DNA of 64,000 nucleotides. It comes from an uncultured Christensenella sp. (lineage in GTDB: Bacteria; Bacillota; Clostridia; Christensenellales; Borkfalkiaceae). Where the stretch lies: assembly GCA_910585235.1 (NCBI GenBank), contig CAJUCM010000003.1, positions 15,649-79,648 on the forward strand, given 5' to 3'. This document shows positions 545 to 54,127 of the stretch, in pieces. Position 1 is the stretch's first letter. Every line of letters begins with the position of its first letter. Below the pieces are notes generated by a model that saw only the letters and a list, made by a program, of their open reading frames with translations, did no database searches and had not been told where the DNA came from. Position numbers and translations under genes: made by a program.

Positions 545-546
545 TT

Positions 547-16351: not shown

Positions 16352-16374
16352 ACTTGTAAAAAATCGAATGACTC

Positions 16375-16404: not shown

Positions 16405-16424
16405 ATGTTCGATAATTTGAAGAA

Positions 16425-16754: not shown

Positions 16755-16775
16755 TTTTTCACCTTAATAAATAAT

Positions 16776-16852: not shown

Positions 16853-16892
16853 ATATTTGTTTTATTTATCATTGACCAATGAGGAGAAAATT

Positions 16893-17348: not shown

Positions 17349-17394
17349 TGACGCAGACTAAAAAAAATTTTTACAAAACTTATCTGCAAAATAC

Positions 17395-17428
17395 AAAAAA
17401 GACCTTGTATGAAACAAGGTCTTTTTTT
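17395..17428 (+). terminator. rho-independent terminator
   Basis: GACCTTG-TATGAAA-CAAGGTC followed by T7. Confidence 0.8.
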
Positions 17429-17562
17429 ATTCAAATCCGAACTTCTAAAAATCCGTTGCGTCACTTCGAGCGCCGAATTACAAAATTCCCTCCCGTTTGC
17501 GAGCATTCGACGCGATTCGACAAAAGTAGTGCTTTTTCAACAATAACTCCCCTTTTCAAACG

Positions 17563-17591
17563 TTGCAAGTTTCATGAACGCAAGTTATAAT
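17563..17591 (+). promoter_or_regulatory. sigma-A type promoter for the 64-aa ORF
   Basis: TTGCAA-17 nt-TATAAT, about 40 nt upstream of the SD GGAGGA and ATG. Confidence 0.55.
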
Positions 17592-17630
17592 ATAGGTACA
17601 TTCGATCGAAACACGTAGAGGAGGAAAGAG

Positions 17631-17825
17631 ATGAACTGCGAACTTACTAAGACCTATGACGAACTTGCCGAACAGGAACCTCCGATCGGGGCGGAGAGTC
17701 TTTTAATCGAACTGCTGCCCCTTATGGAAGAATTTTTTATCGGCGATATTTCCATAAACGATCATACGATTCTGTACCGTATGCCGAACGGACAGCAATT
17801 CAGAATCGTAGCGCAAAAAGCATGA
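17631..17825 (+). CDS. hypothetical small acidic protein (64 aa)
   Basis: Good SD (GAGGAGGAAAGAG ATG), its own promoter and a terminator hairpin. No motif recognised. Confidence 0.5.
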   Translation: MNCELTKTYDELAEQEPPIGAESLLIELLPLMEEFFIGDISINDHTILYRMPNGQQFRIVAQKA

Positions 17826-17836
17826 ACAATAACGAA

Positions 17837-17863
17837 GAGCCGACGGGGAATCCCCGTCGGCTC
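17837..17863. terminator. GC-rich hairpin between convergent genes (weak U-tract)
   Basis: 12-bp stem GAGCCGACGGGG/CCCCGTCGGCTC with a 3-nt loop, followed by ATTTGCATTTT. Confidence 0.55.
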
Positions 17864-17885
17864 ATTTGCATTTTAGTTAAAAAAT

Positions 17886-28017: not shown

Positions 28018-28166
28018 CTGCGATACAATTTTCATATTTTCTTGTGCGTCAATACAACTAAGGCATAGTTGTATCCCTTTTCCTATATTTTGACGCACAG
28101 GAAATTGTATCGCAGCAATTAGGGGACAATATGCAGAGCGTTCCTTAATTGGGGCGCTCTTTTTTT
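28018..28166 (+). promoter_or_regulatory. structured 5' leader: nested three-helix rod plus terminator/antiterminator
   Basis: P1 28018-28031/28102-28115 (14 bp perfect). P2 28044-28052/28090-28098. P3 28053-28060/28066-28073. Terminator stem 28135-28144/28151-28160 plus U6. Alternative pairing 28116-28123 with 28143-28151. Confidence 0.6.
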
Positions 28167-28200
28167 GCGCAAAAAGAAAAAATTTCAGGAGGAGAGAACT

Positions 28201-29712
28201 ATGCACAAATGTTTCAAATGCGGAACGGAGTTCGAGGGCGGCTTCTGCCCCGAATGCGGAACGCGGTTTCAGGAGGAAAAGCACTGCCCGCAGTGCGGCG
28301 CATTGCTTGCGGGGAGCGCAAAATTCTGCAATAACTGCGGATATTCCTTTCTCGAACCCGCAAAAAAGGAAAAGAAGCCGAGCAAGGTCGGCGCGTTTTT
28401 CAAAAAAGTATGGGCGTGGATCAGGGCGCACCTGAAAATCGTGATCCCCTCGGCGGTGGCGCTCGTCGCGGTCGTCGTCATACTTTCGCTCATTCCCACG
28501 TTCATTTTAATGGGCGTGAACGGAACGTATTACGCGTCGCTCGGCGGCGAGCTTTCCGAACAAAATTACGTCACGCTATCTTCGGGCAAGTGGACGGACA
28601 GCGACGGCTTGGAGGGGCGTTATTCGCTTTCGGGTAAAAACATTACGCTCGAATACGAAGATCCCGCCTTGGGCGAATTGGGCGAACTGCTCGGCGGAGA
28701 CGCCGACGCGACCGTCCGTTTGGAGGGAACAATCGAAAACGGCGTTCTGACGCTGAAAGACACGGGACGCGAACAGGTATTTGTTACAAAGAGCCATTCT
28801 CACAGATACGGCGAATGGGAAACAACGCATTCCCCCACCTGCACCGCCGAGGGCGAACAGCAGCGTATCTGCGCCTGCAAAAAGTTTGAAACGGGAAAAG
28901 TTCCACTGACGGGACATACGGCGGTCAATGAAGATTGGCTTTGCACAGCCTGCGGAATGCAATTTACAAAGGGATTGGAATATAAACCGACAAGCGATTC
29001 TTCCGCCTATTCCGTTTCCGAAATCGGTTCGGTTTCGGGCGATATTGTTATTCTCGATTACTACAACGGAAAACCCGTAACAAGTATCGGAGATAATGCG
29101 TTCAGTGATTGCACCTCGCTTACAAGCATAACGATTCCAAGCAACGTGACGAATATTGGAACCGCAGCGTTTTCGGATTGCGACGGACTTACGAGTATTT
29201 ATTATACGGGAGATATTGCAACTTGGTGCGGCATTTCGGGGCTTACCAATCTTATGGCACCCGATCGAACGCTCTATATTGGCGGAAACAAACTCACAGG
29301 CGACCTTGTAATTCCCGACGGCGTGACGAATATCAAAAGTGGTGCGTTCGCTGGTTGCAATGAACTTACAAGCGTTACCATCCCCAATGGCGTAACAAGC
29401 ATCGGGGATGGTGCATTCAGCAATTGCAGAGGACTTACAAGCATTACTATTCCCAACTCCGTCACGAGTATCGAAGATTACGCGTTCTATGATTGCAGCG
29501 GACTTACGAGCATTACGATTCCAAACAGCGTAACAAGTATTGGAGAAAGCGCGTTTATGGGTTGTATCGAACTTACAAGCATTACCTTTCAAGGCACAAA
29601 AGAAGAATGGGACGCGATTAAAACAGGTGACTGGTGGAATCATGTTACAGGTTACTACACCATTCAATGCACGGACGGGAAGTGGGATAAAAGGGGCAAT
29701 GAAATTTCATAA
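28201..29712 (+). CDS. membrane-anchored BspA-type leucine-rich-repeat surface protein with an N-terminal double zinc ribbon
   Basis: CFKCG..CPECG...CPQCG...CNNCG, one TM helix, then repeated IGDxAFxxCxxLTSITIPxxVTxI units (~23 aa). ATG at 28201 with SD AGGAGG. Confidence 0.85.
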   Translation: MHKCFKCGTEFEGGFCPECGTRFQEEKHCPQCGALLAGSAKFCNNCGYSFLEPAKKEKKPSKVGAFFKKVWAWIRAHLKIVIPSAVALVAVVVILSLIPTFILMGVNGTYYASLGGELSEQNYVTLSSGKWTDSDGLEGRYSLSGKNITLEYEDPALGELGELLGGDADATVRLEGTIENGVLTLKDTGREQVFVTKSHSHRYGEWETTHSPTCTAEGEQQRICACKKFETGKVPLTGHTAVNEDWLCTACGMQFTKGLEYKPTSDSSAYSVSEIGSVSGDIVILDYYNGKPVTSIGDNAFSDCTSLTSITIPSNVTNIGTAAFSDCDGLTSIYYTGDIATWCGISGLTNLMAPDRTLYIGGNKLTGDLVIPDGVTNIKSGAFAGCNELTSVTIPNGVTSIGDGAFSNCRGLTSITIPNSVTSIEDYAFYDCSGLTSITIPNSVTSIGESAFMGCIELTSITFQGTKEEWDAIKTGDWWNHVTGYYTIQCTDGKWDKRGNEIS

Positions 29713-41999: not shown

Positions 42000-43904
42000 A
42001 TGAAACGCAAAATCTATCTCACTCTACTTGCACTGATCTGTGCGCTCTGCTGTGCTTTCGCTTTGATCGCCTGCGGCGATGAAAACGACGGTAACAACGG
42101 CGACGGCGGCGAAACGACGGTCTATGAAAAAACGTCGATCGCGCACACGCCGCAGGGCGGGAGCGCGGCGGCGCATAACTGGGATCGGCAAAACCGGTGT
42201 TCCGTATGCGGATACGAACTCGAAGTCACCGACGGTCTTGTGTACACCGAGACGGAGGGCGGATATTCCGTCGCGCTCGGAACAATGGACGGAGAGAACT
42301 TTACGGGCGCGGACGGCATTGAAAACGCAGAAGAAATCGTGATCCCCGCATACTACAACGATCAACCCGTAGTACATATCGGCGACTATAATACGAACTG
42401 TTTCTGGGCGGGTTCTTTCAAGACGCTCACCGTTCCCAATACGATACGTTCGGCGGACGATTATGCTTTTTATTACTGCGGAAATCTGGAAACGGTATAT
42501 TTGGGCTGCAACGTTTTTAACGGAATGTTTTACGAAGTCAGAACGCTGAAAAACGTCTATCTGTCGCCCGACATTACTAAAATCGGCGAGGGCGCGTTCA
42601 AGTCCTGTTCTTCGCTGGAAAGCGCGATCATTCCGGACAGCGTCACCGAACTTAGCAAAGAAGCCTACTATTATTGCTTCGCCGTAACAGAATTGAAGAT
42701 CGGCGCAGGCGTTACGGCAATTCCCGAAAACGCGTTTACGTCCTTACGGCACATTACGCGCGTAGAAATTCCCGCGGGCATACGCTCCGTCGGCAAAAAC
42801 GCGTTTGCGCAATGCTACAAACTGGTGGAGATATACAATCTTTCATCGGTGGAAATCGCAATCGGCGACGAAAGCGCGGACGGGTGCAAAGCGGGCGACT
42901 ATGCGCTGAATATTTTTACCGCAACTTCGGGCGCCGCCGGAACGTTCTTTGAAGAGAACGGATTTGAATTTTACAGGATCGCCGACGACGTGAGCCTGAT
43001 CGGTTACAGCGGTTCCGAAGAAATAACCGCTCTGCCCGCAAGCGTAAACGGCGGGAATTACAAAATCCACGCGCACGCGCTTGCCCATGCGCCCGTCACC
43101 GATCTGGAAATCGGCGCAGGGGTCACCGAAATCGGGCAGTACGCTTTTTCGGGCTCGGAAACTTTGCAATCCGTTAAAATCGGCGACAGCGTTACCGAGA
43201 TTCCCGCCGGCGCGTTTTCAGGGTGTCCGTCGCTCAATTCCGTAGAGCTCGGCAAAAAAGTGCAGACGGTGAATTCTTCCGCCTTTTTGAATTGCGGTTC
43301 GTTATTCGAGATAGGCAACTTTTCCGAGACGCTCGAAGTAACGGGTAAAATCGGCGGTATGCCGAATATGCCGTTGAATATTTACACTGCGCCCGAAGGA
43401 AAAGGCCGTTTTGCAACGGTCGGAGAATTCGTATTTTATTCGTTCGGCGACAGAAATCTGCTTTGCAAATACAACGGCGAAGCTACCGCGCTGACCTTAC
43501 CTGCGGATTTTAAGGGAGGAACATACGAAATTGCGCCGGCAACTTTCAAAAATTCTTCGCTCGAATCCGTCACGATCGGCAACGGCGTTACGGAGATCGG
43601 AGAACAGGCTTTTTATTACTGTTCCAAACTCACGCAGGTGACGCTTGGCAATTCGCTTGTCACGATCGGAAATTCCGCCTTCTTCGGATGCACAAGTCTG
43701 GAAAGCATTACCGTTCCCAAGAGCGTCACTTCCATCAAAACAAAAGCGTTTTACGGGAGCGGGCTGAAAACCGCGATTCTTGAAACCCCCACGGGTTGGA
43801 AAAAAAACGGCACCGCAACGGCAGTCGATTTTTCCGACGCGACGAAAGCCGCGACCACGCTTACAAATTCCGCCGCCCGCAACACGTATTGGACAAGAGG
43901 TTAA
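42000..43904 (+). CDS. BspA-type leucine-rich-repeat surface lipoprotein
   Basis: Signal plus lipobox (CAFALIAC), then many IxxxAFxxCxxLxxVxIPxxVTxI repeats. SD AGGAGG. Confidence 0.85.
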   Translation: MKRKIYLTLLALICALCCAFALIACGDENDGNNGDGGETTVYEKTSIAHTPQGGSAAAHNWDRQNRCSVCGYELEVTDGLVYTETEGGYSVALGTMDGENFTGADGIENAEEIVIPAYYNDQPVVHIGDYNTNCFWAGSFKTLTVPNTIRSADDYAFYYCGNLETVYLGCNVFNGMFYEVRTLKNVYLSPDITKIGEGAFKSCSSLESAIIPDSVTELSKEAYYYCFAVTELKIGAGVTAIPENAFTSLRHITRVEIPAGIRSVGKNAFAQCYKLVEIYNLSSVEIAIGDESADGCKAGDYALNIFTATSGAAGTFFEENGFEFYRIADDVSLIGYSGSEEITALPASVNGGNYKIHAHALAHAPVTDLEIGAGVTEIGQYAFSGSETLQSVKIGDSVTEIPAGAFSGCPSLNSVELGKKVQTVNSSAFLNCGSLFEIGNFSETLEVTGKIGGMPNMPLNIYTAPEGKGRFATVGEFVFYSFGDRNLLCKYNGEATALTLPADFKGGTYEIAPATFKNSSLESVTIGNGVTEIGEQAFYYCSKLTQVTLGNSLVTIGNSAFFGCTSLESITVPKSVTSIKTKAFYGSGLKTAILETPTGWKKNGTATAVDFSDATKAATTLTNSAARNTYWTRG

Positions 43905-43910: not shown

Positions 43911-43948
43911 AAAATAAAATGCGCCCGACGATCGGGCGCATTTTTTTG
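43911..43948. terminator. bidirectional rho-independent terminator
   Basis: A-rich run, ATGCGCCCG-ACGAT-CGGGCGCAT, T7. Separates the LRR gene (+) from the seven-gene operon (-). Confidence 0.85.
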
Positions 43949-43960: not shown

Positions 43961-45679
43961 TTAAAATTCGCTATCATCCATGGCTTCCGCATCGTACCTG
44001 CGGTACATTTCGCGGTACGTCTCCATGTCGGAATAGAGCGCGCGGAGCATTTCCATGTATTTGATCCTGTCCTCGGCAAGCTGTGCGTCCGCACGGAGAA
44101 GCGCCTTGTAGTTGCAGTATTTGACGCGCACGCCGAGCCCCGCAAGCACAAGCCCCGCGACGACGCACACGGCGAGCAGAACGATATTCCACGGGTTAGG
44201 GATATATGCGGACAGGAAATTGCACACGATCCCCGCGGCGACGAGGATCGCGCCGAAGATAACCAACAGATAAAAATTCGTATCTTTGATCGCGGCTTTG
44301 GTTCTTTGGCAACGGTCGGTAAGAAATTTTTCGACGTTCTCTTCGTCCCCGTCCGCGTTATCGAGCGCCGTCTTTGCGGAGTATTCCCCGATATGCACGG
44401 AGAGTTTTTCGGCATACTTGCTCCTGTAAGACTTCACATATTCGCGGTAGGCGCGCCGATAGCTCGCTCTGAATTTTTCATAGGAAAACGCGGCGATCTC
44501 TTTTTTGCCCGCAAAGCGTTCGCTCTCCGTCAGCCATTTGAAGAGACATTCCTCCACGTCGAGATCGGAAACGAGCCTGACGTCCTCTTTGACTTTGAGT
44601 TCCATAGCGTCCTCCAAAACGCCCTTCGCCTCGATGATTTTCTCCTGATAGGAAATTTTATCCCTGATCTCGTCCGACTTGGGAGAACGGCAGTATTCCA
44701 CGGCTTCGTCGAGCATATCCGAATAGAACTGCGCGCGCGCCCCGTCGGAACTTCCGCCGACCAGTTTGCGAAGATACGCGGCGACCGCCCCGTTGTTCAT
44801 GGCGCCGAAGAGCGCCCCGTCGAGCGACGCGCACTCTTCGACGTGCTGTTCGATATACTTGAATTTCGGCGGACGCGTCTTCATGACCTCCACATACCCG
44901 GCGGAAATTTTAGAGACGAACGGCGTTTTGTCGCCGTCGGAGATGTTATCGATCCCAAGATAGGCGCGGAGCTTTTCCGCGCCCCGATCCCGATCGCAGA
45001 GCGCAATGACCGCCAAAAGACGCGAAAATTTCTCCTCGCTGCCGACGAGCGGAACCGCCACAAGACGGTCGATCCAGTAATTCTTTTCCGCCTCGTCGCC
45101 GCGGCGGAGCGCGATCAGAAAGTACACCCAACAGCTTCTGCGCTCGTCGAGCTTCAACGCCTCTTCGCGAGCGCGGTCGGCGGCTTCCGTCTCCCCGCGC
45201 TTGCGCAGTTGCAGATCCATCATGACGTGGCTTAAAAAGAAGTACTGCGTTTTCAGATACTGCTTTTCCGCCTGTTCCGCGATCGTCTCTTCCGAGGCAA
45301 GATTTTTCAGTTCGTTATCCACCATGGCGACGAGCATTTTACGCACGTTCTTTTCGCCGTCCTGATGATAGCGCAGTTCGTTTTTCAGTCCGCGGATGGT
45401 TTTATACGCGTTTTCCATGTTCTTGTAGCGTTCCATCATGCCGCGTATTTCGTCCTGCTTGCGGCTGACGCCGTGCAGGATCTCGTCGTCCGATCTGATC
45501 GTCTTGGCGCCCCCTTCCAGCGTTCCGATCGCGGCGTCCTTCATGGCGGCGACGTCGCGGTGCGCGGTGTTCACGGAGGAGACCATCATATTGATCTCGC
45601 TTTTCAGCTGAGCATTTTCGTTCCTGATCTGGTTGACTTTGCTCCGCATTGCATTGACGTCACTTTGCGTAACACTCAT
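43961..45679 (-). CDS. coiled-coil / helical-core / C-terminal 2-TM hairpin protein, paralogue 3 (572 aa)
   Basis: N-terminal heptad-rich ~110 aa. Core YFFLSHVMMDL...RRSCWVYFLIALRRGDEAEKNYW aligns with the other two paralogues. Two TM helices (LLVIFGAILVAAGIVCNFL, IVLLAVCVVAGLVLAGLGV) plus a ~60-aa helical tail. SD GGAGGT, ATGA overlap with the AAA+ gene. Confidence 0.75.
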   Translation of the reverse strand: MSVTQSDVNAMRSKVNQIRNENAQLKSEINMMVSSVNTAHRDVAAMKDAAIGTLEGGAKTIRSDDEILHGVSRKQDEIRGMMERYKNMENAYKTIRGLKNELRYHQDGEKNVRKMLVAMVDNELKNLASEETIAEQAEKQYLKTQYFFLSHVMMDLQLRKRGETEAADRAREEALKLDERRSCWVYFLIALRRGDEAEKNYWIDRLVAVPLVGSEEKFSRLLAVIALCDRDRGAEKLRAYLGIDNISDGDKTPFVSKISAGYVEVMKTRPPKFKYIEQHVEECASLDGALFGAMNNGAVAAYLRKLVGGSSDGARAQFYSDMLDEAVEYCRSPKSDEIRDKISYQEKIIEAKGVLEDAMELKVKEDVRLVSDLDVEECLFKWLTESERFAGKKEIAAFSYEKFRASYRRAYREYVKSYRSKYAEKLSVHIGEYSAKTALDNADGDEENVEKFLTDRCQRTKAAIKDTNFYLLVIFGAILVAAGIVCNFLSAYIPNPWNIVLLAVCVVAGLVLAGLGVRVKYCNYKALLRADAQLAEDRIKYMEMLRALYSDMETYREMYRRYDAEAMDDSEF

Positions 45680-47163
45680 TTTTTACCTCCGTTCCCCGAC
45701 GCGGGGACCGCGCTCGTACTGCCCCATTCGCGCAACTCCCCGATCAGTTCTTTTTTCGTGGCAAGCATGCTCACCGTCTGTTTGAACGCCGCGGCAAGCT
45801 CCTCGAACGAACCCGTTTTTCCGCTCATGTATTCCTCTTCCGCAACGCTCTTGACCGCGGCTTCGATGTCCGCATAGGAGAACCCCTCGGACAGTGCGAC
45901 GAGCCGCTCCGTCTGTTCTTGGTTCAGCGGGAAAGAGAGGCAGAGTTCCGCATACAGCCCGATCGCGCTCGCGCGCTCCTCCCCGTCGGGCAGATCGACG
46001 AAAAAGGTCTCGTTGAATCTTCCCTTGCGGAAGAGTTCGGGCGGAAGTTTGGAAATATCGTTTGCCGTAGCAACGAGGAACACCCGATCCGAATTTTCCT
46101 GCAACCAAAAGAGAAGTCCGCCTAAGATACGCTTCGTCGTATCGTTGTCGCCTCCGCTGTAAAGCTCCTTTTCGATCTCGTCGATCCAGACGACGCAGGG
46201 ACTTACACTGCCGATATAGTCGAGCGAGAGCCTGAGATTTTTTTCGCTTTCGCCCACGTATTTATCGAACAGCGCGCCGATGTCGAAGCGGTACAGCGGC
46301 AAACGCCACCTGTCCGCAATGAGCTTTGCGGAGAGCGATTTTCCGCAACCGGGAACGCCGACCATGAGGATCCCGCGCGGAGGACTGATGTATTTTTTGT
46401 CGAGCGCGTCCTTGGGCGCAAAGAAAATTTTCTCTTTCCGCGCCAGCCACCTCTTGACCCCGTCGAGCCCCGCAACGTGCACGTCCCCTACGTCCACGCG
46501 GGAAACGGCGGCGTTCTTGCCGAACAGCTTATCTTTCTGCATTGCGACCGCGCACAGATTTTCGTAGGTGAACCCGCCCGAAAGTTTATAGGCGTAATTC
46601 ATGACGATATTCAACTGCAAAGCGGTGTAGCCCGAAAGCACCGTGGCGGTCTGGGGGATTTTGCTCTTATCAAGCGTTTTGATCTTATGATGGGCGATAA
46701 ATCCCGCAATCTGCTTTTCGCGCTCCTTCTGCGTCGGCAGATCGAGTTTGATAAACATTCCGAGTCTTCCCAAGCCCCGCCATACGGGATCGGACGTGAC
46801 GACGACGATCGAACTTTTTCTGTCGGAGGCAAGCCTCACGAGCGCGGACATCTTTCTGGAAAACGAATTGTCCGTATCCAGATAGCGCACGTCGCCGAGC
46901 GCAAAGCACTGCCCGCTCTTCTTTTTCAGCTTCTCCTCGATATAGACGAGCGGTTCGCGCGATTCCGCGCTCCTCTCCTCCCGTCTCAGCTCGATAAAGC
47001 CGTCGGTATCGGTATAAAATTCCAGTTCACTGCCGAGCTCTTCCGCCGCGTCTTTGAGCGCCGAACGCGCCCTGTCCCGTTCCGCCGTCATCAGCACGAC
47101 GAGCGGGGTTCGCGCCGCGATACAGGCGGTAAGCTCTTTCACTGTCTGCAAATAATTACTCAT
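45676..47163 (-). CDS. classical-clade AAA+ ATPase (COG0464 / Ycf46-like), N-terminal ~230 aa without Walker motifs
   Basis: Walker A GVPGCGKS, Walker B VVWIDEIE, VGESEKNLR, and second region of homology ATANDISKLPPELFRKGRFNETFFVDLP. Confidence 0.88.
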   Translation of the reverse strand: MSNYLQTVKELTACIAARTPLVVLMTAERDRARSALKDAAEELGSELEFYTDTDGFIELRREERSAESREPLVYIEEKLKKKSGQCFALGDVRYLDTDNSFSRKMSALVRLASDRKSSIVVVTSDPVWRGLGRLGMFIKLDLPTQKEREKQIAGFIAHHKIKTLDKSKIPQTATVLSGYTALQLNIVMNYAYKLSGGFTYENLCAVAMQKDKLFGKNAAVSRVDVGDVHVAGLDGVKRWLARKEKIFFAPKDALDKKYISPPRGILMVGVPGCGKSLSAKLIADRWRLPLYRFDIGALFDKYVGESEKNLRLSLDYIGSVSPCVVWIDEIEKELYSGGDNDTTKRILGGLLFWLQENSDRVFLVATANDISKLPPELFRKGRFNETFFVDLPDGEERASAIGLYAELCLSFPLNQEQTERLVALSEGFSYADIEAAVKSVAEEEYMSGKTGSFEELAAAFKQTVSMLATKKELIGELREWGSTSAVPASGNGGKK

Positions 47164-47169
47164 AATTCA

Positions 47170-47607
47170 CTATGCCGTTTTTTTAAGCCCCGCCGCGCTT
47201 TCCAGCGCGGAGAGATGATATACAATGTCTGCGTTTTCGTTCTCGACGGAAATTTCGATCTTGCCGACGAAATCCCCGACCAGCGTGCGGATATATTCCT
47301 CGATCCTGTCCGCGTCCGCCTTTCGGATAAAGCCGAGCTCTCTGAAAAAATACATGTTCGCGACGGTATCCGTGAGAACTTCGAGCCTGTAAAGACTTTC
47401 GACAAGTTCGTCCGTTCCCTCTTCAAACAGGGCGAGTGACGCTTTGAGATTGCGCTCCACGCATTCGCCGATCAGCGCGATCAGCGAGGCATAGTCGCAT
47501 TTTTTCAACTTGCCCCGTTTGAGATATTCCGCTTTCTCGCCCGTGAGCCTGCCCGAAAGCGCCTCTTCCCACTGCTCCGCCTTAGAGGGTCCCTTCTTCC
47601 GCCTCAT
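47170..47607 (-). CDS. hypothetical 145-aa helical protein
   Basis: Basic N-terminus, then predicted helices (LIALIGECVERNLKASLALFEEG...VANMYFFRELGFI). SD AAGGA. Packed 4 nt after the preceding small ORF. Confidence 0.6.
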   Translation of the reverse strand: MRRKKGPSKAEQWEEALSGRLTGEKAEYLKRGKLKKCDYASLIALIGECVERNLKASLALFEEGTDELVESLYRLEVLTDTVANMYFFRELGFIRKADADRIEEYIRTLVGDFVGKIEISVENENADIVYHLSALESAAGLKKTA

Positions 47608-47611
47608 GATC

Positions 47612-47779
47612 TCAGTCCTTATATTTTGCGGGAGGCATGATGCTCCACTTGGGGAGTTTCTTTTTCAGCTCGTTGAGCTGTTCCGTGGAGAGCACGTTCG
47701 CGCCCTCTTCGCCGATAAACATCGAGAAATCGAACTCCTCTTTTTCCCTGTTCTTTTCCGTATTTTCGTTTTCCGTCAT
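47612..47779 (-). CDS. unlisted 55-aa ORF (MTENENTEKNREKEEFDFSMFIGEEGANVLSTEQLNELKKKLPKWSIMPPAKYKD)
   Basis: Hand-translated. AAGGAG lies 10 nt upstream. It fills the only gap in the operon (23 nt after the upstream gene, 4 nt before the downstream gene). Below the ORF-track cut-off. Confidence 0.5.
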   Translation of the reverse strand: MTENENTEKNREKEEFDFSMFIGEEGANVLSTEQLNELKKKLPKWSIMPPAKYKD

Positions 47780-47802
47780 TTCCTCAATTCTCCTTACCTG
47801 TA

Positions 47803-49452
47803 TTATAAATTATCGATCGCTTTCAGGACCTCGTCCTTCAAGTCAAGTTCTTTTCCGATCACGGCGCGGTAATTGTCGATTTCGTCAAGACATTTATCGA
47901 GTATTTTCTGCGCCTTTGCGATCCGTGCGGGGAATGTTCTCACTTTGAGCAGGGTCGTGATCAAAACGATCAGAAAGAATACGAGAAAGAGTACGGGTCC
48001 CGCGATATATCCGATAAAGAACAGCTCCTCTTCCAAAGACTGCATGATCATGCCGACCGCGCAGCCCGCGATCAGGAACACGAGCGCAAGCACAGAAAGA
48101 ATGATATTCCGTTTGGTAAAGACCACCTCTTTGGAGCGCGCCTCCATGAATCTGTCGTGAATGTTCTTTTTGACCGCCTCCCGATCCTTTCCGTCGGTGA
48201 CGTCCGACCACAGGTCGATACCGAGTTTGAAGTTTTCGGGGATCTCCGTTCTGATCTCGCGGTCGTAAGCTCTGACCGCCTCCTTGAACCAACCGCCCGT
48301 CTTCTGCATGGCAAACTTCTGAACGCTGATATCCTCGCCCTCCGGATAGACCGCCCAGCGGAATATCTGCTTACTGATATTGGAATTGGATTCGTTAAAG
48401 GTCTCCATGTACTGCGCGTATTCTTTTTTCGCCGCCTCTACGTCCCCTTCGTGCTCCATGATGAGCTTATAGAGCTTCTGCTCGTTTCTCAGTTGCAGTT
48501 CCTCTTCGTCGTAGTTGTTTACGAGATCGTCGAGCAGTTTGTCGATCTTTGCGACAAAGTCCCCCGTCCCGTTCACGACGGGCGCGTTCTCCAATGTTTT
48601 AATGCGTTTCAACGCGGACCCGTAGCGGCTCGCGCTCTCGTAGGACGCTTGCAGTTCGTCGAGATTCGAGCAGTGATCGTACAGCGTTCCGCAGGGGATC
48701 TCCGCCTTGCCGACGGGCAGCGTCCGCACATATTTACAGTAGCTCTCCGTCAGCTCCTCCGACATCTCTTTTTCCGCGCCGATCTCGTTGACCCATCTGT
48801 CCATCGTCATCTGGACAAAGCTGTCGAGCTGAACGTCCCGTCCGAATACGCCGTAGATATACGCCTGGATCAGAAGCGCGGTTTCGCGCGGGGGATGCAG
48901 GCTGTCAACCGCGCCGAAAAACTCGTACAGCCAGGAGCGCGCCGCGATGTGGTCGCCGAAGCGCAGGTTCAACAGACAGAAGAAGAGCGAAGCGCGGGAA
49001 GCGTCGCGGCGGAGCGCTTCGCTAACGGCGTTTTCGCACAGCTCCTTATTGTCCTGCACCCAGGCGCTGATCGCGATGAACGCATAGCTCAGCCAGTAAC
49101 GCGAAGAGGACATCCAAAGTTCCTCGCTCAGTTTTGCGATCGTGGAACCGCGGGCAAGGTTAATATCGAAGTCCTTGATGACGCCGAGGACCGAACGGCG
49201 GGTCTGGATATAACTGTTGAGCTGTTCGTTGATCCGCTGTTCGAGCTGTAAAACGTTCTCGTGCGCAAGCTGTTTTTCCTCGCCCTCGATGATCATTTTC
49301 CGCAACTGCGTCATCTTCTGATCGACGTTGTTGACCGTCGAGTCGATCTTATTGAGCGCGGCGTTCATTTTATCCGCCTGCGTCTTGACCCCGCTTGCAA
49401 ACGCGTTCGCCGTACTGTTGAGCGCGCTGACTAATTGAGACGTACTTGCCAT
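47803..49452 (-). CDS. coiled-coil / helical-core / C-terminal 2-TM hairpin protein, paralogue 2 (549 aa)
   Basis: Core SSRYWLSYAFIAISAWVQDNKELCENAVSEALRRDASRASLFFCLLNLRFGDHIAARSW. Two TM helices plus a helical tail. Start abuts the stop of the upstream gene (AGGAGGAAATATAA ATG). Confidence 0.75.
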   Translation of the reverse strand: MASTSQLVSALNSTANAFASGVKTQADKMNAALNKIDSTVNNVDQKMTQLRKMIIEGEEKQLAHENVLQLEQRINEQLNSYIQTRRSVLGVIKDFDINLARGSTIAKLSEELWMSSSRYWLSYAFIAISAWVQDNKELCENAVSEALRRDASRASLFFCLLNLRFGDHIAARSWLYEFFGAVDSLHPPRETALLIQAYIYGVFGRDVQLDSFVQMTMDRWVNEIGAEKEMSEELTESYCKYVRTLPVGKAEIPCGTLYDHCSNLDELQASYESASRYGSALKRIKTLENAPVVNGTGDFVAKIDKLLDDLVNNYDEEELQLRNEQKLYKLIMEHEGDVEAAKKEYAQYMETFNESNSNISKQIFRWAVYPEGEDISVQKFAMQKTGGWFKEAVRAYDREIRTEIPENFKLGIDLWSDVTDGKDREAVKKNIHDRFMEARSKEVVFTKRNIILSVLALVFLIAGCAVGMIMQSLEEELFFIGYIAGPVLFLVFFLIVLITTLLKVRTFPARIAKAQKILDKCLDEIDNYRAVIGKELDLKDEVLKAIDNL

Positions 49453-51234
49453 TTATATTTCCTCCTTCAATACCCGCATGAGTTCTTCATAAATTGCGTC
49501 CTGTTCTTTGTAATACTTCCGCCAGCGCGCCATATCTTCCAAACCCGTTTTCAACATTTTCACGCCGTTTTTGATCCGGTATTCAAACGCCTTTTTGATC
49601 TTCTTTTTCTGATCCGCTCTGAAAAACGCCATGAGAACGCCCGCTCCGAGCCCGACGATCGCAAGCACCAAAAGCGTCACGCTGACCCCCGTGCCCCATT
49701 CCAGAACAAACCCGACGACCGCAAGCGCAAGAAAGAGCACGAACATGGAAGCGGAGATCGCGATCCCCTTTCCGCAGGCGACGTGCGTTTTATCCGACTT
49801 GACCCGCTGTTTGATCAGTCCGTCATAGTATTTGAGAAGTTTGGGTTCGTTCTCCTCAAAGCTGTTTTCGTCGCCCGAAAGTTTACAGCCGTCCACGTCG
49901 AGCGGATAGATCTTCTTTTCCTTTTTGCGGTACTGCCCGAACCGCGCCACCCCGTCGATACAGTCCTCTTTGATCCCGTCGAGGCAGAACTTTCTCACAC
50001 GGCTGTCCGTCTTCATTTTGGAATCGAGCGCCGCGTCCGCCATGATGAGCGCCATGTTGTTTTGATTGTCGCGCTCCGCCATCATCTTTTTATAGGCTTC
50101 CTCGGCGACTTCCACTCTGCCGTTGGCTTTGACGACCGCCTCTTCGTAACTGATCTTATCCATGAGCGCCTGCTCGTTCTCGTCGTAAGTGGAAATGAGC
50201 GAATAGAGCGAATCCTCGATCCTCTCCGCGAGCCTGTCGCTCAAAGAAAAGTCACTCTGAACGATCGAAAGAAAGTACTTTTTCAAGAGTTCGTTTTTCT
50301 CCGCGGAGGAGACGAGAGAAAGCATTTCTTCATATTCCGTACAGATATGTTTGAGCGCGATAAATTCTTTGTCGGTCACGGAGATGAGCGCGGAAATATG
50401 GTTATCGACGCTTTCGCGGACGAGCGCTTTCGTCGAAGCCTGCCCCCGCGCCCTATCGATGAGTTCGCGCAATTTCTCCCCGACTTCGTTCGCAAAGTCG
50501 GGATCGGATCCCAGCGCCCCGCTCAACAGCGCTTGCAGGATATAGACGATCTCGTCGCCCACGCCGTTTTCATCCACGAGATTGAAATAAACTTTGTACC
50601 ACGCCTTTGCCGCCTCGATCCTGTCAAAGCGGAGGGACGCGAGCAGAAAGAAGAGCGCGGACTTCCTCTCGTTCATCTGCATACTCTTGCTGACCGCGCG
50701 CTGACACGCCTCTTCCTCGTCCGACGCCCATAGCATGACCGCCATCGTGGCGTACGCAAGCCAGTAGTCGGTGTTCGCAAGATACATTTTCTCCACCGTC
50801 GCGCGCGGCGCGTCGCTCGTCCATAAATTGGAATCGAGACCGACGACGTAGCCGAGCGAAACCCTTCTGAGCGCGTTATAGGTGCCGTAGAGCGTAAAAT
50901 ATTTATCGTAACTTCCCGTCAGGTTTTTGGAAGCCGTACTGCCCACCTTCAATCTGCGGTAACTCTCGACAAGGTCGTCGATCGTGCGCGATACGTTGGC
51001 GGCAATGACCTCTTTTTTGATCGTCTCGCCCGTGTTCATATCCATGGGCGGAGGCACCGTTTTGTTGAGCTGTTCGATGATCGAAATGGAAGCCGCAACG
51101 TCGCGCTGACAGCCTTCCACTTCGGCAACGAGCCTTATCTGCTCTTCCCTGAGCGCGTTGAACTCGGCAACGAGGCGGTTGTATTCGTTTACGAGCTGAA
51201 CTTGCCGTTCGTACTCTGCATCGTAGTCTGCCAT
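49453..51234 (-). CDS. coiled-coil / helical-core / C-terminal 2-TM hairpin protein, paralogue 1 (593 aa)
   Basis: Core NTDYWLAYATMAVMLWASDEEEACQRAVSKSMQMNERKSALFFLLASLRFDRIEAAKAW. TM helices ISASMFVLFLALAVVGFVL and VTLLVLAIVGLGAGVLMAFF plus a basic helical tail. SD AGGAGAGG. Confidence 0.75.
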   Translation of the reverse strand: MADYDAEYERQVQLVNEYNRLVAEFNALREEQIRLVAEVEGCQRDVAASISIIEQLNKTVPPPMDMNTGETIKKEVIAANVSRTIDDLVESYRRLKVGSTASKNLTGSYDKYFTLYGTYNALRRVSLGYVVGLDSNLWTSDAPRATVEKMYLANTDYWLAYATMAVMLWASDEEEACQRAVSKSMQMNERKSALFFLLASLRFDRIEAAKAWYKVYFNLVDENGVGDEIVYILQALLSGALGSDPDFANEVGEKLRELIDRARGQASTKALVRESVDNHISALISVTDKEFIALKHICTEYEEMLSLVSSAEKNELLKKYFLSIVQSDFSLSDRLAERIEDSLYSLISTYDENEQALMDKISYEEAVVKANGRVEVAEEAYKKMMAERDNQNNMALIMADAALDSKMKTDSRVRKFCLDGIKEDCIDGVARFGQYRKKEKKIYPLDVDGCKLSGDENSFEENEPKLLKYYDGLIKQRVKSDKTHVACGKGIAISASMFVLFLALAVVGFVLEWGTGVSVTLLVLAIVGLGAGVLMAFFRADQKKKIKKAFEYRIKNGVKMLKTGLEDMARWRKYYKEQDAIYEELMRVLKEEI

Positions 51235-51244
51235 ATCCTCTCCT

Positions 51245-53962
51245 TTACAGTTTGATGTGTGCGGCGATCAGATCGACCGTTTTTTTGTCGAGCTCTCCGA
51301 GTTGCAGATAATCTCTGAACTTCATCTTTTTGCCGTTGACGAATACTTTGTCCGTCGCGTCCATCCCCTTTTTTTGCAGATAACGGATCGTTTCCTCCGT
51401 CTTGGGAGCGATCTCTTTCAGCGTGAAAAGATATGCCTGCAACAGATTGCACTGAACGTGTTTGCAGACCGTTTCGATCTTCTTCGGCTTGTCGGCAAAC
51501 TCGACGACTTTGGGAACGAGCGCATCCTTGACTTCCTGCGAACCTTTGAATTCCGAGACGAATCTGCCGATCGACGTCTCGTCGAAGGAGCGCACGCAAT
51601 CGAATATTTTTCCGAGGTGCTCCTCATAACCGCCGATCAGACTTTCGCAGTGCCTCACGAAGATACGGCGGGCTTCCGCGGGATTCTCTTCGAGGTAGGG
51701 ATACAGGTATTTGACGTAGGTCTCGTCATAGCGTTCGGGGAGAATGTCGAGATAGAGTTCGATGCTCTGCCTGCTGAACGGAAAGTCCCCGAACATTTCA
51801 AAAATTTCGCGCTTATCCTCGTCGCTGTCCCTGCCCGCAAGAAACGCCTCGATCTGTCTGTTGGCGTCGCCGTACTTGCCCGTCTTGGGCGCGAGCAGTT
51901 TCATAAATTCCTTTTTGAGCGGATCTCCGCCGAGGAGCATCTTCTCGTAATATTTGATTTCGAGATCGCTCACTTTGTCAATGAGGATCTTGACGGTCGC
52001 AAGCCGGTCGGCGCCGTTGCCCCTGATCGCGCCCACGAGCAGTTCGCTCGCAAGCCTTTTATCGATATTGAAATCGAAGAAAGCGATCTTGATTTTTTCA
52101 AGGTCGCAGTGTTCGAGAATATACTGCATATTGTACGTTCCGAGATCGGAGATCCCCGACTGGTACCTGAGGTGTTTCAGAACTTCGTTTGCGACCTCGT
52201 TTCCGCCGTTTGCCGCAAGCGTCACGAGTTTATCCACTTCCACATTGAGAAGGGGACGCTTGCCGTAATTTTCAAGCACCGCTCTGACGGAATCCGCGTC
52301 TTTCAGTCCGGAGAGCGCGCCGCCGAGCCCCATAACGTTCAGCGGGATCTTATGAATATTCATGATCTTCACGACGGCGAGCGCGACGCCCTCCTCTTCG
52401 CAGTCGGAGAGATACGCGTTCAGATCGTCCGTTACGGCGGGCGTCATGTCCAGCTTGTCGGCGATCGCAAGGAGGTTGATCTGCTTCTGTACGCTGTCGC
52501 CCCCGTCTCCCCGAAGATAGGCGATTAAAAGCGCGTTTCCGTCCAAACGGGAGACGCCGCGCATGACTTCGCTCACCTCTTCCGTTCTGCCGTTTGCAAG
52601 GAGCATCTGCACGAGTTCCGTGACCGTCTTCGTATTGTAAATGTTATGATAGTCCACCATGTCGAGGACGAAACACTGCCTCGCCCTGTCCTTGATCGCG
52701 CCGAAACACTTCGCAAGATAAATGAGCAGATTCGCGTCCGCGATCTCGCCGTAAACTCCGCGCTCCGAAAGCGTCAGCGACGGATATTTTTTCTTGATCT
52801 CCGCGCTCACGTTCTGAATGCTGTCAATGTGAAGATTCCTCTCCGCGGGCGGGCATTTTGAGAGAGCGGCAAGCTCCGTGCACAGCGTGGCGACGGGGAT
52901 CAGCTCCTCCCCGTGAAGCCGCGCGAACTGCTCGAATACGATGCGGCTTGCGGTCTCCGTATTGCCGACGGTGAGGTTGGAAAGCACCATCGTCATGGCT
53001 TCGGAAAGCCCCTCCGCCTTTCTGTCCTGCATGACGATCCGCTCGGTGACGACCGTCTTCGCGCTCTGCGAAGAGGACTTCTTTTCCTTTTTGCGGACGG
53101 CAAACGCCTTTGCATCTTCTATCCAGCCCTTGCCGTTCAGATCGATCGGCGCCTGCTTCTGGAACGTCTTTCTCAGGCGGAACGGAAACCTGCTCTCGTC
53201 AAGTCCGTTGTGCAAAACCTGTATTTTTTTGCCTTCGCCCGCAATGAACCGACCCCAGATATACTCGTTCCCGTCGAGCGTCTCTTCGCTTTCCGCAACT
53301 AAAAACATGGTCGCGGCGCTCTCGGACGCGGCGAAAATGCACGCCTCCGCACTCGGCGCGTTCTTCGGAATGGACTTCGACGGCAGGAAAATGCGGATCC
53401 CCTCTTTCTTCAATGCGTCAAAGAGTTGATCCGCCGCCTTTTTCTCGATACCGTCTTCCCCGCAGAAAATGAACGCGTCGTATTTTTCCTGCGAGGCGCT
53501 CAATTCATAAGAACGGTAACGGAGCTGTTCGATCTCGGTCGCTTTTTTACGGTATTCCGCGCTCTCCTCTTCCCCGCACAGGTCGTAAATTTTTTGAAGA
53601 TAAGCGGACTTCGTCGCGGGAATGCGGGAGATCAGGTGGATCCTCGGAACATACGTCCCGTTTTCCTGAACGTATTCGATCCCGTACTCGGAAAGAAACG
53701 CGCCCCAATAGGCAAGCAGATTCCGATCGTCCTGCCCGATTGCGGACTCATAGATTTCAAGCGCTTTATCGAAATGGCGCAGCTTCCGCTCGCGCTCCGC
53801 CGTGTTGAGCTGTTCCACAAGCTGGGACGGAGTCTCCGCCCCCGCCTTTTCGATATTCCGATATGTATTGCCGCAATTTTCGCAGACGTATGTTCCGTCG
53901 GTATTCTTTTCCAGTTTACCGCCGCAAGTATAACATTCCAGCCAATCTTTGTTTACTCTCAT
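51245..53962 (-). CDS. Zn-ribbon / TPR-like / TIR-like domain protein with a ~600-aa helical-repeat C-terminal region (905 aa)
   Basis: CYTCGG...CENCG. LLAYWGAFLSEYGIEY and SAEYRKKATEIEQL...YDAFIFCGEDG...GIRIFLP...TMFLVAES...YIWGRF are collinear with the first ~280 aa of the TIR protein at 7276-9873. No TM helices. Confidence 0.75.
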   Translation of the reverse strand: MRVNKDWLECYTCGGKLEKNTDGTYVCENCGNTYRNIEKAGAETPSQLVEQLNTAERERKLRHFDKALEIYESAIGQDDRNLLAYWGAFLSEYGIEYVQENGTYVPRIHLISRIPATKSAYLQKIYDLCGEEESAEYRKKATEIEQLRYRSYELSASQEKYDAFIFCGEDGIEKKAADQLFDALKKEGIRIFLPSKSIPKNAPSAEACIFAASESAATMFLVAESEETLDGNEYIWGRFIAGEGKKIQVLHNGLDESRFPFRLRKTFQKQAPIDLNGKGWIEDAKAFAVRKKEKKSSSQSAKTVVTERIVMQDRKAEGLSEAMTMVLSNLTVGNTETASRIVFEQFARLHGEELIPVATLCTELAALSKCPPAERNLHIDSIQNVSAEIKKKYPSLTLSERGVYGEIADANLLIYLAKCFGAIKDRARQCFVLDMVDYHNIYNTKTVTELVQMLLANGRTEEVSEVMRGVSRLDGNALLIAYLRGDGGDSVQKQINLLAIADKLDMTPAVTDDLNAYLSDCEEEGVALAVVKIMNIHKIPLNVMGLGGALSGLKDADSVRAVLENYGKRPLLNVEVDKLVTLAANGGNEVANEVLKHLRYQSGISDLGTYNMQYILEHCDLEKIKIAFFDFNIDKRLASELLVGAIRGNGADRLATVKILIDKVSDLEIKYYEKMLLGGDPLKKEFMKLLAPKTGKYGDANRQIEAFLAGRDSDEDKREIFEMFGDFPFSRQSIELYLDILPERYDETYVKYLYPYLEENPAEARRIFVRHCESLIGGYEEHLGKIFDCVRSFDETSIGRFVSEFKGSQEVKDALVPKVVEFADKPKKIETVCKHVQCNLLQAYLFTLKEIAPKTEETIRYLQKKGMDATDKVFVNGKKMKFRDYLQLGELDKKTVDLIAAHIKL

Positions 53963-54037
53963 CTACAACCCCTCGCCGTTTTGAAACCGTTGCGGGACGG
54001 TTCAATTACTTTTTTCCGTTGCTATACATTATGTTAC

Positions 54038-54066
54038 AGTTTAACATTTTTGTCGAAAAATGTCAA
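54038..54066 (-). promoter_or_regulatory. candidate promoter of the seven-gene operon
   Basis: Minus strand reads TTGACA-17 nt-TAAACT, about 70 nt upstream of the SD GAGGGG and ATG at 53962. Confidence 0.45.
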
Positions 54067-54089: not shown

Positions 54090-54127
54090 TAAAAAAGCGA
54101 CCGCGGACACAATCGTTCCGCGGTCGC
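54090..54127 (-). terminator. rho-independent terminator after the lacI-family gene
   Basis: Minus strand reads GCGACCGCGGA-loop-TCCGCGGTCGC followed by TTTTTTATGG. Confidence 0.8.

Follow-up and report, generated by a model that had tools for sequence, protein, structure and literature searches.

Cdc48/p97, Pex1/Pex6 with Pex15/Pex26, and NSF with SNAREs are type II AAA+ extractases that work at membranes. The Cdc48-like AAA+ proteins of extracellular contractile injection systems (eCIS) such as PVC (the Pvc15-type cargo loader) and ClpV of type VI secretion systems (T6SS) are encoded with variable toxins whose N-terminal leaders are disordered. A toxin paired with an immunity-like gene that co-varies with it points more to an interbacterial toxin system than to abortive infection, and a long helical hairpin combined with a transmembrane (TM) hairpin and helix is a layout typical of membrane-shaping proteins. 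In Bacillus subtilis, the YdjI/YdjL architecture of an SPFH domain with a C-terminal Zn ribbon is coupled to PspA (PMC11237479, PMC10936438), and an 'inactive classical AAA + classical AAA' architecture has been reported beside PspA in several bacteria (PMC11237479). A variable toxin with a co-varying partner is the grammar of polymorphic toxin/immunity pairs, and the AAA+ protein of PVC is covered in the same work (PMC3482391). Here, we compare with these systems a seven-gene operon, g1 to g7, from a 64-kb stretch of DNA of an uncultured Christensenella sp. (contig CAJUCM010000003.1; 'the window' hereafter means this whole stretch of 64,000 nucleotides (nt)). The operon encodes a Zn-ribbon protein with a long alpha-solenoid (g1), three paralogues with two predicted TM segments (2-TM; g2, g3 and g7, or paralogues A, B and C), a micro-protein of 55 amino acids (aa; g4), a helical protein (g5) and a tandem AAA+ ATPase (g6). 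The gene set fits no known system.

Comparison of sequences and gene orders indicates that a widespread, horizontally mobile cassette without a name exists, of which the seven genes are the form specific to one lineage. A pattern-limited scan of GTDB, with one genome per species and 185,579 species covered, found 94 relatives, and 80 of their loci were fetched. Almost everywhere among these 80 loci the order is 2-TM A, 2-TM B, a protein of 55-74 aa, a protein of 140-205 aa, the AAA+ ATPase and 2-TM C, and over 120 of the loci fetched in all share this gene order. That the gene set is conserved argues that the operon is a real functional unit and not a chance neighbourhood. The initial annotation, made from the letters of the window alone, had left room for genes that keep company in this genome only, or for a universal syntenic core; instead, homologues co-occur strictly in the 80 loci, and the small number of relatives and their unrelated flanks do not fit a universal core. 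The flanks differ even among close relatives, and 381 flanking open reading frames (ORFs) fall into 325 clusters. As the flanking genes are not conserved, the cassette appears to move as a unit.

The hosts of the window's clade are Christensenellaceae-like Clostridia (52-74% identity). Outside it, the cassette is found in Lachnospiraceae, Oscillospiraceae, Ruminococcaceae, Acutalibacteraceae, Hungatella hathewayi and Pseudoflavonifractor, and further in two Bifidobacterium species, an Eggerthellaceae metagenome-assembled genome (MAG) and MAGs labelled Anaerolinea; Roseburia hominis (CP159990) also has the long form, as do Hungatella hathewayi and Bifidobacterium isolates, and H. hathewayi WAL-18680, R. 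hominis, Bifidobacterium callimiconis and Comamonas are cultivable carriers. A distant branch, at 21-23% identity, was reached by tblastn against plasmids. Its minimal layout has five genes, for proteins of ~157 aa, ~572 aa (2-TM-like), ~63 aa, ~190 aa and ~517 aa (AAA+), and is carried by Komagataeibacter plasmids, a Comamonas megaplasmid and Fusobacterium vincentii, and also by Comamonas, Paraburkholderia, Cupriavidus and Quatrionicoccus. At least 963 members of this branch are known, every one labelled 'hypothetical'; their hosts include Paraburkholderia, Cupriavidus, Comamonas, Variovorax and Stenotrophomonas, and the compact cassette is always the same in very diverse contexts. Firmicutes encode three paralogues of the 2-TM protein, Proteobacteria a single one. 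Some copies adjoin plasmid or mobile-element genes and several lie on plasmids, and no trace of the proteobacterial cassette was found by blastn in 5,426 complete E. coli genomes. The ~157-aa gene of the minimal cassettes stands upstream in Proteobacteria and downstream in Fusobacterium; its product has no Pfam or PDB match and carries a conserved Cys/His signature, KCYLGxPYEVH...IIxHYK.

Three loci show local peculiarities. On the Paraburkholderia edwinii chromosome (L096), the five-gene cassette lies inside a defence-like island, where the adjoining DNA (1-8100 and 13000-19719) encodes DUF6361 with a large helicase, a WYL-WCX regulator, SIR2 and a resolvase fragment, and continues with a HigB-like toxin, a RecD-like protein and UvrD/PDDEXK proteins. 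On a gut metagenome scaffold (L004, 9761-12954) the AAA+ and paralogue-C genes are in pieces, which could reflect decay or an assembly error. In an Oscillospiraceae genome (L020, 15633-17286) an insertion of about 1.6 kb separates the AAA+ gene from paralogue C.

The C-terminal half of g6 is an active AAA+ domain whose best PDB sequence matches are the D2 domains of VAT/p97/Cdc48 (E 6e-37). In g6 and its homologues (56 sequences) the Walker A motif (GxxGCGKS), the Walker B motif (DE), the pore loop (K-(Y/W)-V-G), sensor 1 (N368) and both arginine fingers (R379 and R382) are invariant. The classical-clade assignment with intact Walker motifs and arginine fingers made in the initial annotation is thus confirmed, and the AAA+ ATPase described there is refined to a tandem AAA+ with a degenerate D1. 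The N-terminal half aligns with the family's own C-terminal AAA half by hhalign (87%, E 3.7e-6, 94 columns) over the sensor-1/arginine-finger/lid region, and has a conserved motif of its own, ARTPLIII.T.ERER. Since the Walker motifs, the pore loop and the arginine fingers of D2 are invariant and closest to those of Cdc48 D2, g6 is, to judge from these motifs, built to thread polypeptides. Sister families of tandem AAA+ proteins with a dead D1 (~30% identity) occur on two Bacillus plasmids (L090 and L091) and on a Pseudanabaena galeata plasmid (match H9). We considered whether they belong to the same system and rejected it, as their partners are DUF2997 and DUF1257 proteins, which makes them a different, uncharacterised AAA+ module; these modules reside on large or phage-like plasmids.

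The 2-TM proteins are a further component of the core. The AlphaFold2 (AF2) model of g2 (mean predicted local distance difference test score, pLDDT, 81.5) has a long N-terminal helical hairpin (residues 6-59 and 68-116), a helical-repeat core (119-438), a small beta-hairpin and then a TM hairpin (about 482-545) with a turn of ~3 residues, followed by a helix of ~45 residues that ends at residue 590. Because the anchor is a TM hairpin, both termini are predicted to be cytoplasmic. No signal peptide was apparent, in that only the C-terminal TM hairpins are hydrophobic and the N-termini are polar coiled coil, although no dedicated predictor was run. The paralogy proposed for the three proteins is borne out by BLAST values (Table 1), and core positions R, E, Y-W-L, W, LFF..R, W, E, G and W are common to all three paralogue families. 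The divergent copy g7 lacks the equivalents of W158 and W169 of g2, which 23 of 26 paralogue-C sequences retain, and g7 may, by this loss, be a degenerate or regulatory subunit in the window's clade.

More than 250 homologues of g2 were found, every one unnamed or 'hypothetical'. In a profile search that covered 1.84 billion representative proteins, the 2-TM family came to 748 clusters (at 50% identity) with E <= 1e-3, of which 359 reached E <= 1e-30; almost all of the 748 have lengths of 530-620 aa and align from end to end. Foldseek with the g2 model gave nothing at E <= 1e-3 against PDB and BFVD, and PDB sequence and profile searches with g2 and the 2-TM profile returned coiled-coil noise and nothing significant. 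A Pfam scan that took in 76 members of the 2-TM families gave weak DUF2207_C matches in 23, all below threshold, on the TM region and uninformative. The top Foldseek matches of g2 were tripartite alpha-pore-forming toxins (AhlABC/Smh/Mak), which are secreted proteins of the ClyA-family fold, but with E 0.06-0.5, TM-scores of 0.11-0.28 and a root-mean-square deviation above 15 A to the AhlB/SmhB type, they were rejected as an artefact of elongated helices.

The two small proteins between the 2-TM and AAA+ genes are equally constant in position. A homologue of g4 fills the same slot in nearly all 80 loci. The N-terminal half of this family is acidic and variable, and the tail reads (K/R)LP-x-W-(S/N/D)-L-E-P-P-x-x-F-L-K, of which P43, W45 and P49 (P-x-W-x-x-x-P) are invariant across 38 sequences that include those of Proteobacteria; the Fusobacterium copy has the motif too ('FPAWNLEPP'). 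The invariance of the tail across phyla is strong evidence at the sequence level that the 55-aa ORF is a genuine, constrained gene. The helical protein g5 diverges fast, and a homologue of 140-205 aa by position and sequence is found in nearly all loci; no Pfam match was found for g5 and no PDB match with the g5 profile.

The first gene sets the window's clade apart. The AF2 model of g1 (pLDDT 87, predicted template modelling score 0.73) runs from a Zn ribbon through TPR-like helices with a beta-hairpin and a flavodoxin-like alpha/beta domain to a disordered Ser/Lys-rich linker and an alpha-solenoid of ~580 residues. Its full-length homologues number 32, each at least 41% identical, and form a narrow clade that is the window's own. 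In most related clusters the same position is taken by a separate gene for a Zn-ribbon/helical protein of ~663 aa, which likewise has four invariant N-terminal Cys. The solenoid of g1 matches this protein by BLASTP (E 4e-7) and by profile-profile hhalign (99.9% probability, E 4.2e-32, 572 columns), and a C-terminal CNLLQAY...GKKMKF motif is kept in both. The ~600 aa that the initial annotation could not assign have therefore found their family. By the solenoid homology, g1 is the Zn-ribbon/solenoid subunit with a TPR and TIR-like module inserted after the ribbon. Foldseek with the g1 model against PDB gave only weak alpha-solenoid matches (SKI3, DSR2, UNC-45; E >= 1e-3, TM-score < 0.2).

That the N-terminus of g1 is paralogous to a stand-alone TIR protein of the window was also correctly seen: its ~240 N-terminal residues match the 865-aa protein encoded at 7276-9873 (E 5e-23), which has significant TPR and TIR_2 matches (the latter 34.8 bits), and a few g1 homologues have a precomputed TIR_2 match. 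We aligned the g1 family with reference TIRs that share the N-terminal module, namely this 865-aa protein and four proteins from the g1 search (P0153-P0156), which carry the motifs YDVFISYK and WV(K/R)NEW. At the WV(K/R)NEW site all g1-family sequences aligned have a two-residue deletion and I, V or T at the Glu position. The TIR-like domain proposed earlier is thus homologous to real TIRs, but its catalytic Glu is gone. The g1 domain is TIR-derived but, as the catalytic-Glu motif is deleted or replaced throughout the aligned family, very probably not an NADase, and the TPR and dead TIR module is most likely an oligomerisation or recognition part.

The 865-aa protein (minus strand) has a Zn ribbon and TPR ahead of its TIR_2 domain. 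This domain has an intact WVKNEW Glu motif and is followed by further TPR, a coiled coil and a C-terminal match to the C-domain of ribosomal protein L7/L12 (38 bits); the gene adjoins that of a P-type cation ATPase (4466-7264). Among defence models the protein matches PADLOC candidate family PDC-S66 alone, and that weakly (E 2.4e-4); it is possibly a single-gene TIR effector.

Outside the window's clade, the usual first three genes encode an SPFH protein with C-terminal Zn ribbons (Band_7_1, 1.8e-35), a ~230-aa protein with four TM segments (4-TM) and the Zn-ribbon/solenoid protein; the SPFH and 4-TM genes are absent from the window's clade. Directly after the Zn-ribbon/solenoid gene, 26 of the 66 loci in which that gene was found have a gene for a HerA-like ATPase of ~906 aa, followed by a large variable protein and a small partner, and this block ends at 2-TM A. 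The variable protein has an acidic N-terminus rich in D, E and S, and a 36-aa repeat (M.EYM..HNYG.EDY..YSQDPEWQ.LN) that is present in one to six copies; its variable C-terminal domain changes together with the class of the small partner encoded downstream. The partner has 75 aa where that domain is a Gln_amidase or papain fold toxin 1 (3e-10), 98 aa where it shows a weak SprT-like Zn-peptidase signature, and ~160 aa where it is a C39-like peptidase (Peptidase_C39_2); where the C39-like peptidase is followed by an extra C-terminal domain (weakly RelA_SpoT-like in one locus, Endonuclea_NS_2 at 9e-25 in another), the partner is of ~380 aa, the scanned copy being HD_4 fused to the 160-aa domain. 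Altogether about 40% of the relatives with upstream sequence carry a HerA-like ATPase and a polymorphic toxin/immunity-like cassette. When a metagenome scan was seeded solely on the 36-aa repeat motif, 41 loci were returned; 36 of them have the repeat after the HerA gene of the cluster and/or immediately before its 2-TM genes, three are arranged differently or unclear, and two contigs are too short. A search that started from an unrelated motif thus led back to the gene set, and this toxin type is dedicated to the cluster.

Three assignments among these genes were dropped. A third upstream arrangement, with a C39-like peptidase and HD_4, was withdrawn when it proved to be the toxin/partner pair of HerA-type loci on truncated contigs. 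The ~160-aa toxin partner of Firmicutes is not a homologue of the ~157-aa proteobacterial protein (hhalign probability 0.2%), and the 906-aa protein of a metagenome scaffold (L006), once taken for a g1 homologue, is HerA-like instead.

How these components might work together is what we infer from their conserved parts, and this holds for the assembly of the cassette, the threading of substrate and the cellular role alike. The reading we prefer, which we put forward tentatively, is that the cassette forms an unfoldase platform docked at the membrane and serves biological conflict, by the export or controlled release of toxic proteins. The invariant core comprises the hairpin-anchored protein of ~570 aa, the micro-protein of ~55-65 aa, the helical protein of ~145-200 aa and the soluble tandem AAA+. 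Coiled-coil contacts would let the hairpin proteins oligomerise and so build the platform at the cytoplasmic side of the membrane; in the window it would be hetero-oligomeric. The hexameric ATPase would be docked by g4 and g5 in the role of adaptor or signal, and would then thread a protein substrate at the membrane, either through the platform or stripped off it. In the window's clade the accessory component is g1, which would be a scaffold or recognition subunit and not an enzyme. Because the HerA, toxin and immunity-like genes are essentially found with the cluster only, toxin export or controlled release is the most likely job in the relatives.

Several observations weigh against this proposal. 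Neither the operon nor the whole window contains a HerA, toxin or immunity gene that we could find, so that the conflict role is extrapolated from relatives, and most loci and all minimal cassettes are likewise without a toxin. The outer loop of the TM hairpin has only ~3 residues and no component that spans the wall or the outer membrane was seen, even in diderm hosts, which is odd for a secretion machine. No similarity to secretion or defence components was found by fold or profile beyond generic ATPase folds, and IMG/VR viral contigs yielded no relatives of the 2-TM protein. The flanks in Firmicutes (more than 60 loci) are mostly housekeeping, with 138 families among 143 proteins, of which about 8 match defence models at E <= 1e-10. 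In several Comamonas assemblies the cassette sits at one chromosomal site beside ligA, zipA and smc, and this locus looks more stable than typical conflict systems.

A more specific variant, which we consider rather unlikely, would make the cassette an AAA+-powered apparatus for protein export or delivery and a new type of secretion system. The hairpin-anchored paralogues would then be the membrane conduit, the tail of the micro-protein and the 36-aa repeat of the toxins would be targeting signals, and the Cdc48-like ring, with HerA in the extended form, would unfold polymorphic toxins and drive them outward for interbacterial antagonism. If this were true, the carriers would be gut Clostridia, Bifidobacterium and, in the minimal form, many Proteobacteria. 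In the roughly 40% of relatives with the toxin cassette, the cluster resembles type VII secretion systems (T7SS) in having an AAA+, an ATPase of the HerA/FtsK superfamily, small and membrane proteins, and toxin/immunity pairs with a cluster-specific N-terminal module. It differs in that the WXG100/LXG, EssB, EsaA and EccB-E families are not present, the ATPase of the relatives is a single-domain HerA-like protein and not a triple FtsK, and the window lacks an FtsK/SpoIIIE protein of the EssC/EccC type and has neither HerA-like ATPase nor toxin in the operon. With the AAA+ proteins of T6SS and eCIS the cluster shares an AAA+ encoded alongside variable toxins, but no phage-tail, sheath, tube or baseplate families were found in the operon or in the cluster genes of relatives examined. 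The features of polymorphic toxin systems are found in the HerA-carrying relatives and not in the window operon or elsewhere in the window.

The initial annotation had matched the gene set to no described defence, secretion or division system, and broader searches agree with it. Pfam, NCBIfam and PADLOC gave only a generic AAA domain on the seven proteins, and only AAA, HerA, SPFH, Zn-ribbon and toxin domains on 2-TM members and on accessory and minimal-cassette proteins; PADLOC v2 matched no component beyond generic AAA/HerA domains. PDB sequence and profile searches with g1, g2, the 2-TM and g5 profiles, the ~157-aa protein and HerA returned coiled-coil noise and a HerA match. Foldseek with the g1 and g2 models pointed to no described system, and literature searches found no publication describing the cassette. 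Among the defining features of known classes for which the comparison gave a clear answer, only those of a classical-clade AAA+ (the pore loop and the arginine fingers of the second region of homology) were found, in g6. As functional analogues, type II extractases share with the cassette a tandem AAA+ with one dead ring that is presumably recruited by small adaptors to coiled-coil membrane partners, and the several paralogous coiled-coil membrane proteins recall SNAREs. They differ in that g6 is short (495 aa), its D1 is strongly degenerate and it lacks an N-domain of Cdc48 type, and its partners are unrelated in sequence and encoded in a bacterial operon.

The initial annotation offered two readings of its own, a conflict system and membrane remodelling of the Vps4/ESCRT-III or PspA type. 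In the latter, which is the main rival of the preferred reading but which we judge unlikely, the paralogues would form a polymer along the cytoplasmic side of the membrane and shape or seal it, the tandem AAA+ would disassemble and recycle the polymer in a remodelling or repair machine, and the SPFH-Zn-ribbon and 4-TM proteins would organise a membrane patch in most relatives. The likeness lies in a threading classical AAA+ and in membrane proteins that start with a long helical hairpin (~110 aa in the 2-TM model) and end with a TM hairpin and long helix. The SPFH and Zn-ribbon protein that comes first in relatives has the PspA-coupled YdjI/YdjL architecture (PMC11237479, PMC10936438), the dead-D1/live-D2 AAA+ is the one reported near PspA (PMC11237479), and many loci lie amid housekeeping genes. 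This comparison is at the level of architecture, and of the two PspA-partner architectures only the tandem AAA+ is in the window; the SPFH and 4-TM genes that would organise the patch are absent from its clade. No PspA_IM30 or Snf7/ESCRT-III match was obtained by Pfam in the 76 2-TM members, g4 and g5, although the N-terminal hairpin may be a very remote relative, and no PspA, Vipp1 or ESCRT-III structure is among the 50 Foldseek PDB matches listed for g2. PspA_IM30 is also absent from the operon and is not among the 25 most frequent families of the 143 flanking proteins. Where Vps4 has an MIT domain before a single AAA, g6 has the 225 aa of a dead D1, and NCBIfam CdvC scores it at 67.7 bits against a cut-off of 650. 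Unlike CdvBC and PspA systems, the cassette has membrane proteins that reach ~570 aa and combine an alpha-solenoid core with a TM hairpin, and it has an obligatory micro-protein and a ~160-aa partner. Its patchy, mobile spread across phyla, including plasmids, would be unexpected for basic membrane upkeep, and the dedicated toxin/immunity/HerA cassette would be left unexplained. The relatives' first gene and the dead-D1 ATPase give this reading support from context, but PspA, Snf7 and MIT domains are not detected.

The same patchy and plasmid-borne spread would suit anti-phage abortive infection, in which g1 or the Zn-ribbon/solenoid protein would sense, the AAA+ would remodel and the 2-TM paralogues would open the membrane; we hold this to be a doubtful reading. 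One copy lies within the defence-like island described above, HerA-based effector modules are known in defence, and weak sub-threshold holin or DUF2207_C-like matches fall on the TM region. The TIR-derived head and ~580-aa solenoid of g1 are loosely reminiscent of DSR2 and of ThsB of Thoeris, but the head is degenerate, DSR2 is only among the non-significant fold matches (TM-score < 0.2), and the solenoid is retained as a cluster subunit where the TIR is absent. The best defence-library match of g6 D2 is IetA (98.9 bits), which is a match of the AAA domain only; NCBIfam IteA_antiphage gives g6 85 bits against a cut-off of 510, not at family level, and no peptidase domain was found by Pfam in the seven proteins that could stand for the subtilisin-like protease IetS. 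The neighbourhoods are not enriched in defence genes, the Comamonas locus is stable, PADLOC v2 adds nothing beyond the generic ATPases, and the co-varying toxin/immunity-like pairs point rather to interbacterial toxin systems (PMC3482391). The grammar of a TIR, a 2-TM effector and an NTPase, from which abortive infection had been suggested, does not hold up, as the Glu is lost, the TIR insert is clade-specific and the flanks are poor in defence matches; the broader idea of a conflict system survives through the toxin/immunity cassettes of the relatives. Thoeris-like signalling or NAD+ depletion by g1, with the other proteins as effectors, could appeal to the homology of its N-terminus to a TIR_2 protein, but it is essentially excluded for the window's clade: no intact catalytic Glu was found in any aligned g1-family sequence, the insert is confined to this narrow clade and the cluster occurs elsewhere without it, and no ThsA-type effector (SIR2, Macro or SLOG) is among the seven proteins by Pfam and PADLOC. 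It is equally improbable that the genes are a housekeeping cluster of the lineage core, with a part in division or sporulation, say. Pyrimidine biosynthesis and sugar utilisation beside the operon and the housekeeping flanks of many relatives would agree with such a role, but relatives are rare in the species scan, flanks differ between close relatives, and the cassette is present in non-sporulating Proteobacteria, Bifidobacterium, Fusobacterium and small plasmids.

If the preferred reading of an unfoldase platform is true, four unannotated protein families would form a conserved machine in at least four bacterial phyla, including abundant Clostridia and Bifidobacterium of human and animal guts, the 2-TM family alone counting about 750 clusters at 50% identity, and a Cdc48-like unfoldase would be coupled to the bacterial membrane in a new way. 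Toxin delivery or release would mean that gut Firmicutes antagonise other bacteria by a route that has not been studied. Membrane remodelling, in turn, would mean a bacterial Vps4/ESCRT-like function without ESCRT-III and would bear on the origin of such machines. The system is directly testable, as the five-gene cassette of Proteobacteria is compact, resides on plasmids and lends itself to transfer into E. coli, and the invariant tail of the micro-protein is a rare case of a constrained small ORF of ~55 aa.

In the window, the seven genes are, from their layout and flanking signals, one self-contained operon. All seven co-oriented ORFs and their tight junctions were reproduced in the ORF list; from g1 to g7 the junctions are +10, 0, +23, +4, +6 and -4 nt, the last (g6/g7) being an ATGA overlap. 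The single transcription unit proposed before is likewise upheld by a promoter-like site upstream, which has 10 of 12 consensus matches by consensus scan and sequence reading and is a consensus match only, by a strong bidirectional terminator-like hairpin downstream, and by a hairpin and T-run 3' of the upstream LacI gene (~54098-54127). Coordinates are collected in Table 1.

Table 1. Positions of the operon, its domains and signals in the window, and of related genes in other loci (locus coordinates preceded by the locus name)
Feature	Location	Strand	Size	Description and basis
g1	51245-53962	(-)	905 aa	Zn ribbon and TPR-like helices, then a degenerate TIR-like domain and, after a disordered linker, an alpha-solenoid of ~580 aa; ORF list, AF2 model
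g1 residues 8-35	53858-53941	(-)		four-Cys zinc ribbon; C10, C13, C27 and C30 invariant in 26 homologues
g1 residues 160-288	53099-53485	(-)		flavodoxin-like domain, TIR-derived, without catalytic glutamate; alignment with TIR_2-bearing proteins
g1 residues 319-902	51257-53008	(-)		alpha-solenoid, homologous to separate ~663-aa Zn-ribbon/helical protein
g2	49453-51234	(-)	593 aa	2-TM paralogue A; ORF list, AF2 model, hydropathy scan
g3	47803-49452	(-)	549 aa	2-TM paralogue B; ORF list; E 3e-23 to g2 over 481 residues
g4	47612-47779	(-)	55 aa	acidic micro-protein, C-terminal motif KKLPKWSIMPPAKYKD; ORF list
g5	47170-47607	(-)	145 aa	helical protein, conserved P..Y.EW close to N-terminus; ORF list
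g6	45676-47163	(-)	495 aa	tandem AAA+ ATPase; ORF list
g6 residues 1-225	46489-47163	(-)		dead AAA+ D1-like domain, Walker A and B both lost; hhalign
g6 residues 226-495	45676-46488	(-)		active classical-clade AAA+ domain (Cdc48/VAT D2-like); PF00004 1.7e-26
g7	43961-45679	(-)	572 aa	2-TM paralogue C, divergent copy; ORF list; E 7e-12 to g2; TM hairpin about 462-522
Promoter-like site	54038-54066	(-)		TTGACA, 17-nt spacer, TAAACT, extended TG ahead of the -10 hexamer
Bidirectional intrinsic-terminator-like hairpin	43916-43944	both		13-bp stem, 7 GC pairs, T-runs on both strands; scan and reading
~157-aa gene, Komagataeibacter plasmid	L087 1106-1576
~157-aa gene, Comamonas megaplasmid	L088 8258-8743
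~157-aa gene, Fusobacterium vincentii	L089 12776-13270
~157-aa gene, Comamonas chromosome	L093 8503-8982
HerA/toxin/partner block, examples	L006 5023-9976; L015, L020, L024, L027, L046, L086; metagenome L100-L140

The neighbours of the operon are ordinary: pyrimidine biosynthesis, a BspA-type leucine-rich-repeat lipoprotein and a LacI/sugar-utilisation locus. No Rfam families or tRNAs were found in the window. Between 16001 and 18000 the GC content is 0.41, against about 0.52-0.57 elsewhere, which may indicate foreign or intergenic DNA, and a 1,829-aa ORF lies at 22393-27882 on the minus strand. The BspA-type protein next to the operon (42000-43904, plus strand) has a lipoprotein-like N-terminus, and another protein of this type (28165-29712, plus strand) has an N-terminal double Zn ribbon of the type found on the SPFH protein of the relatives.

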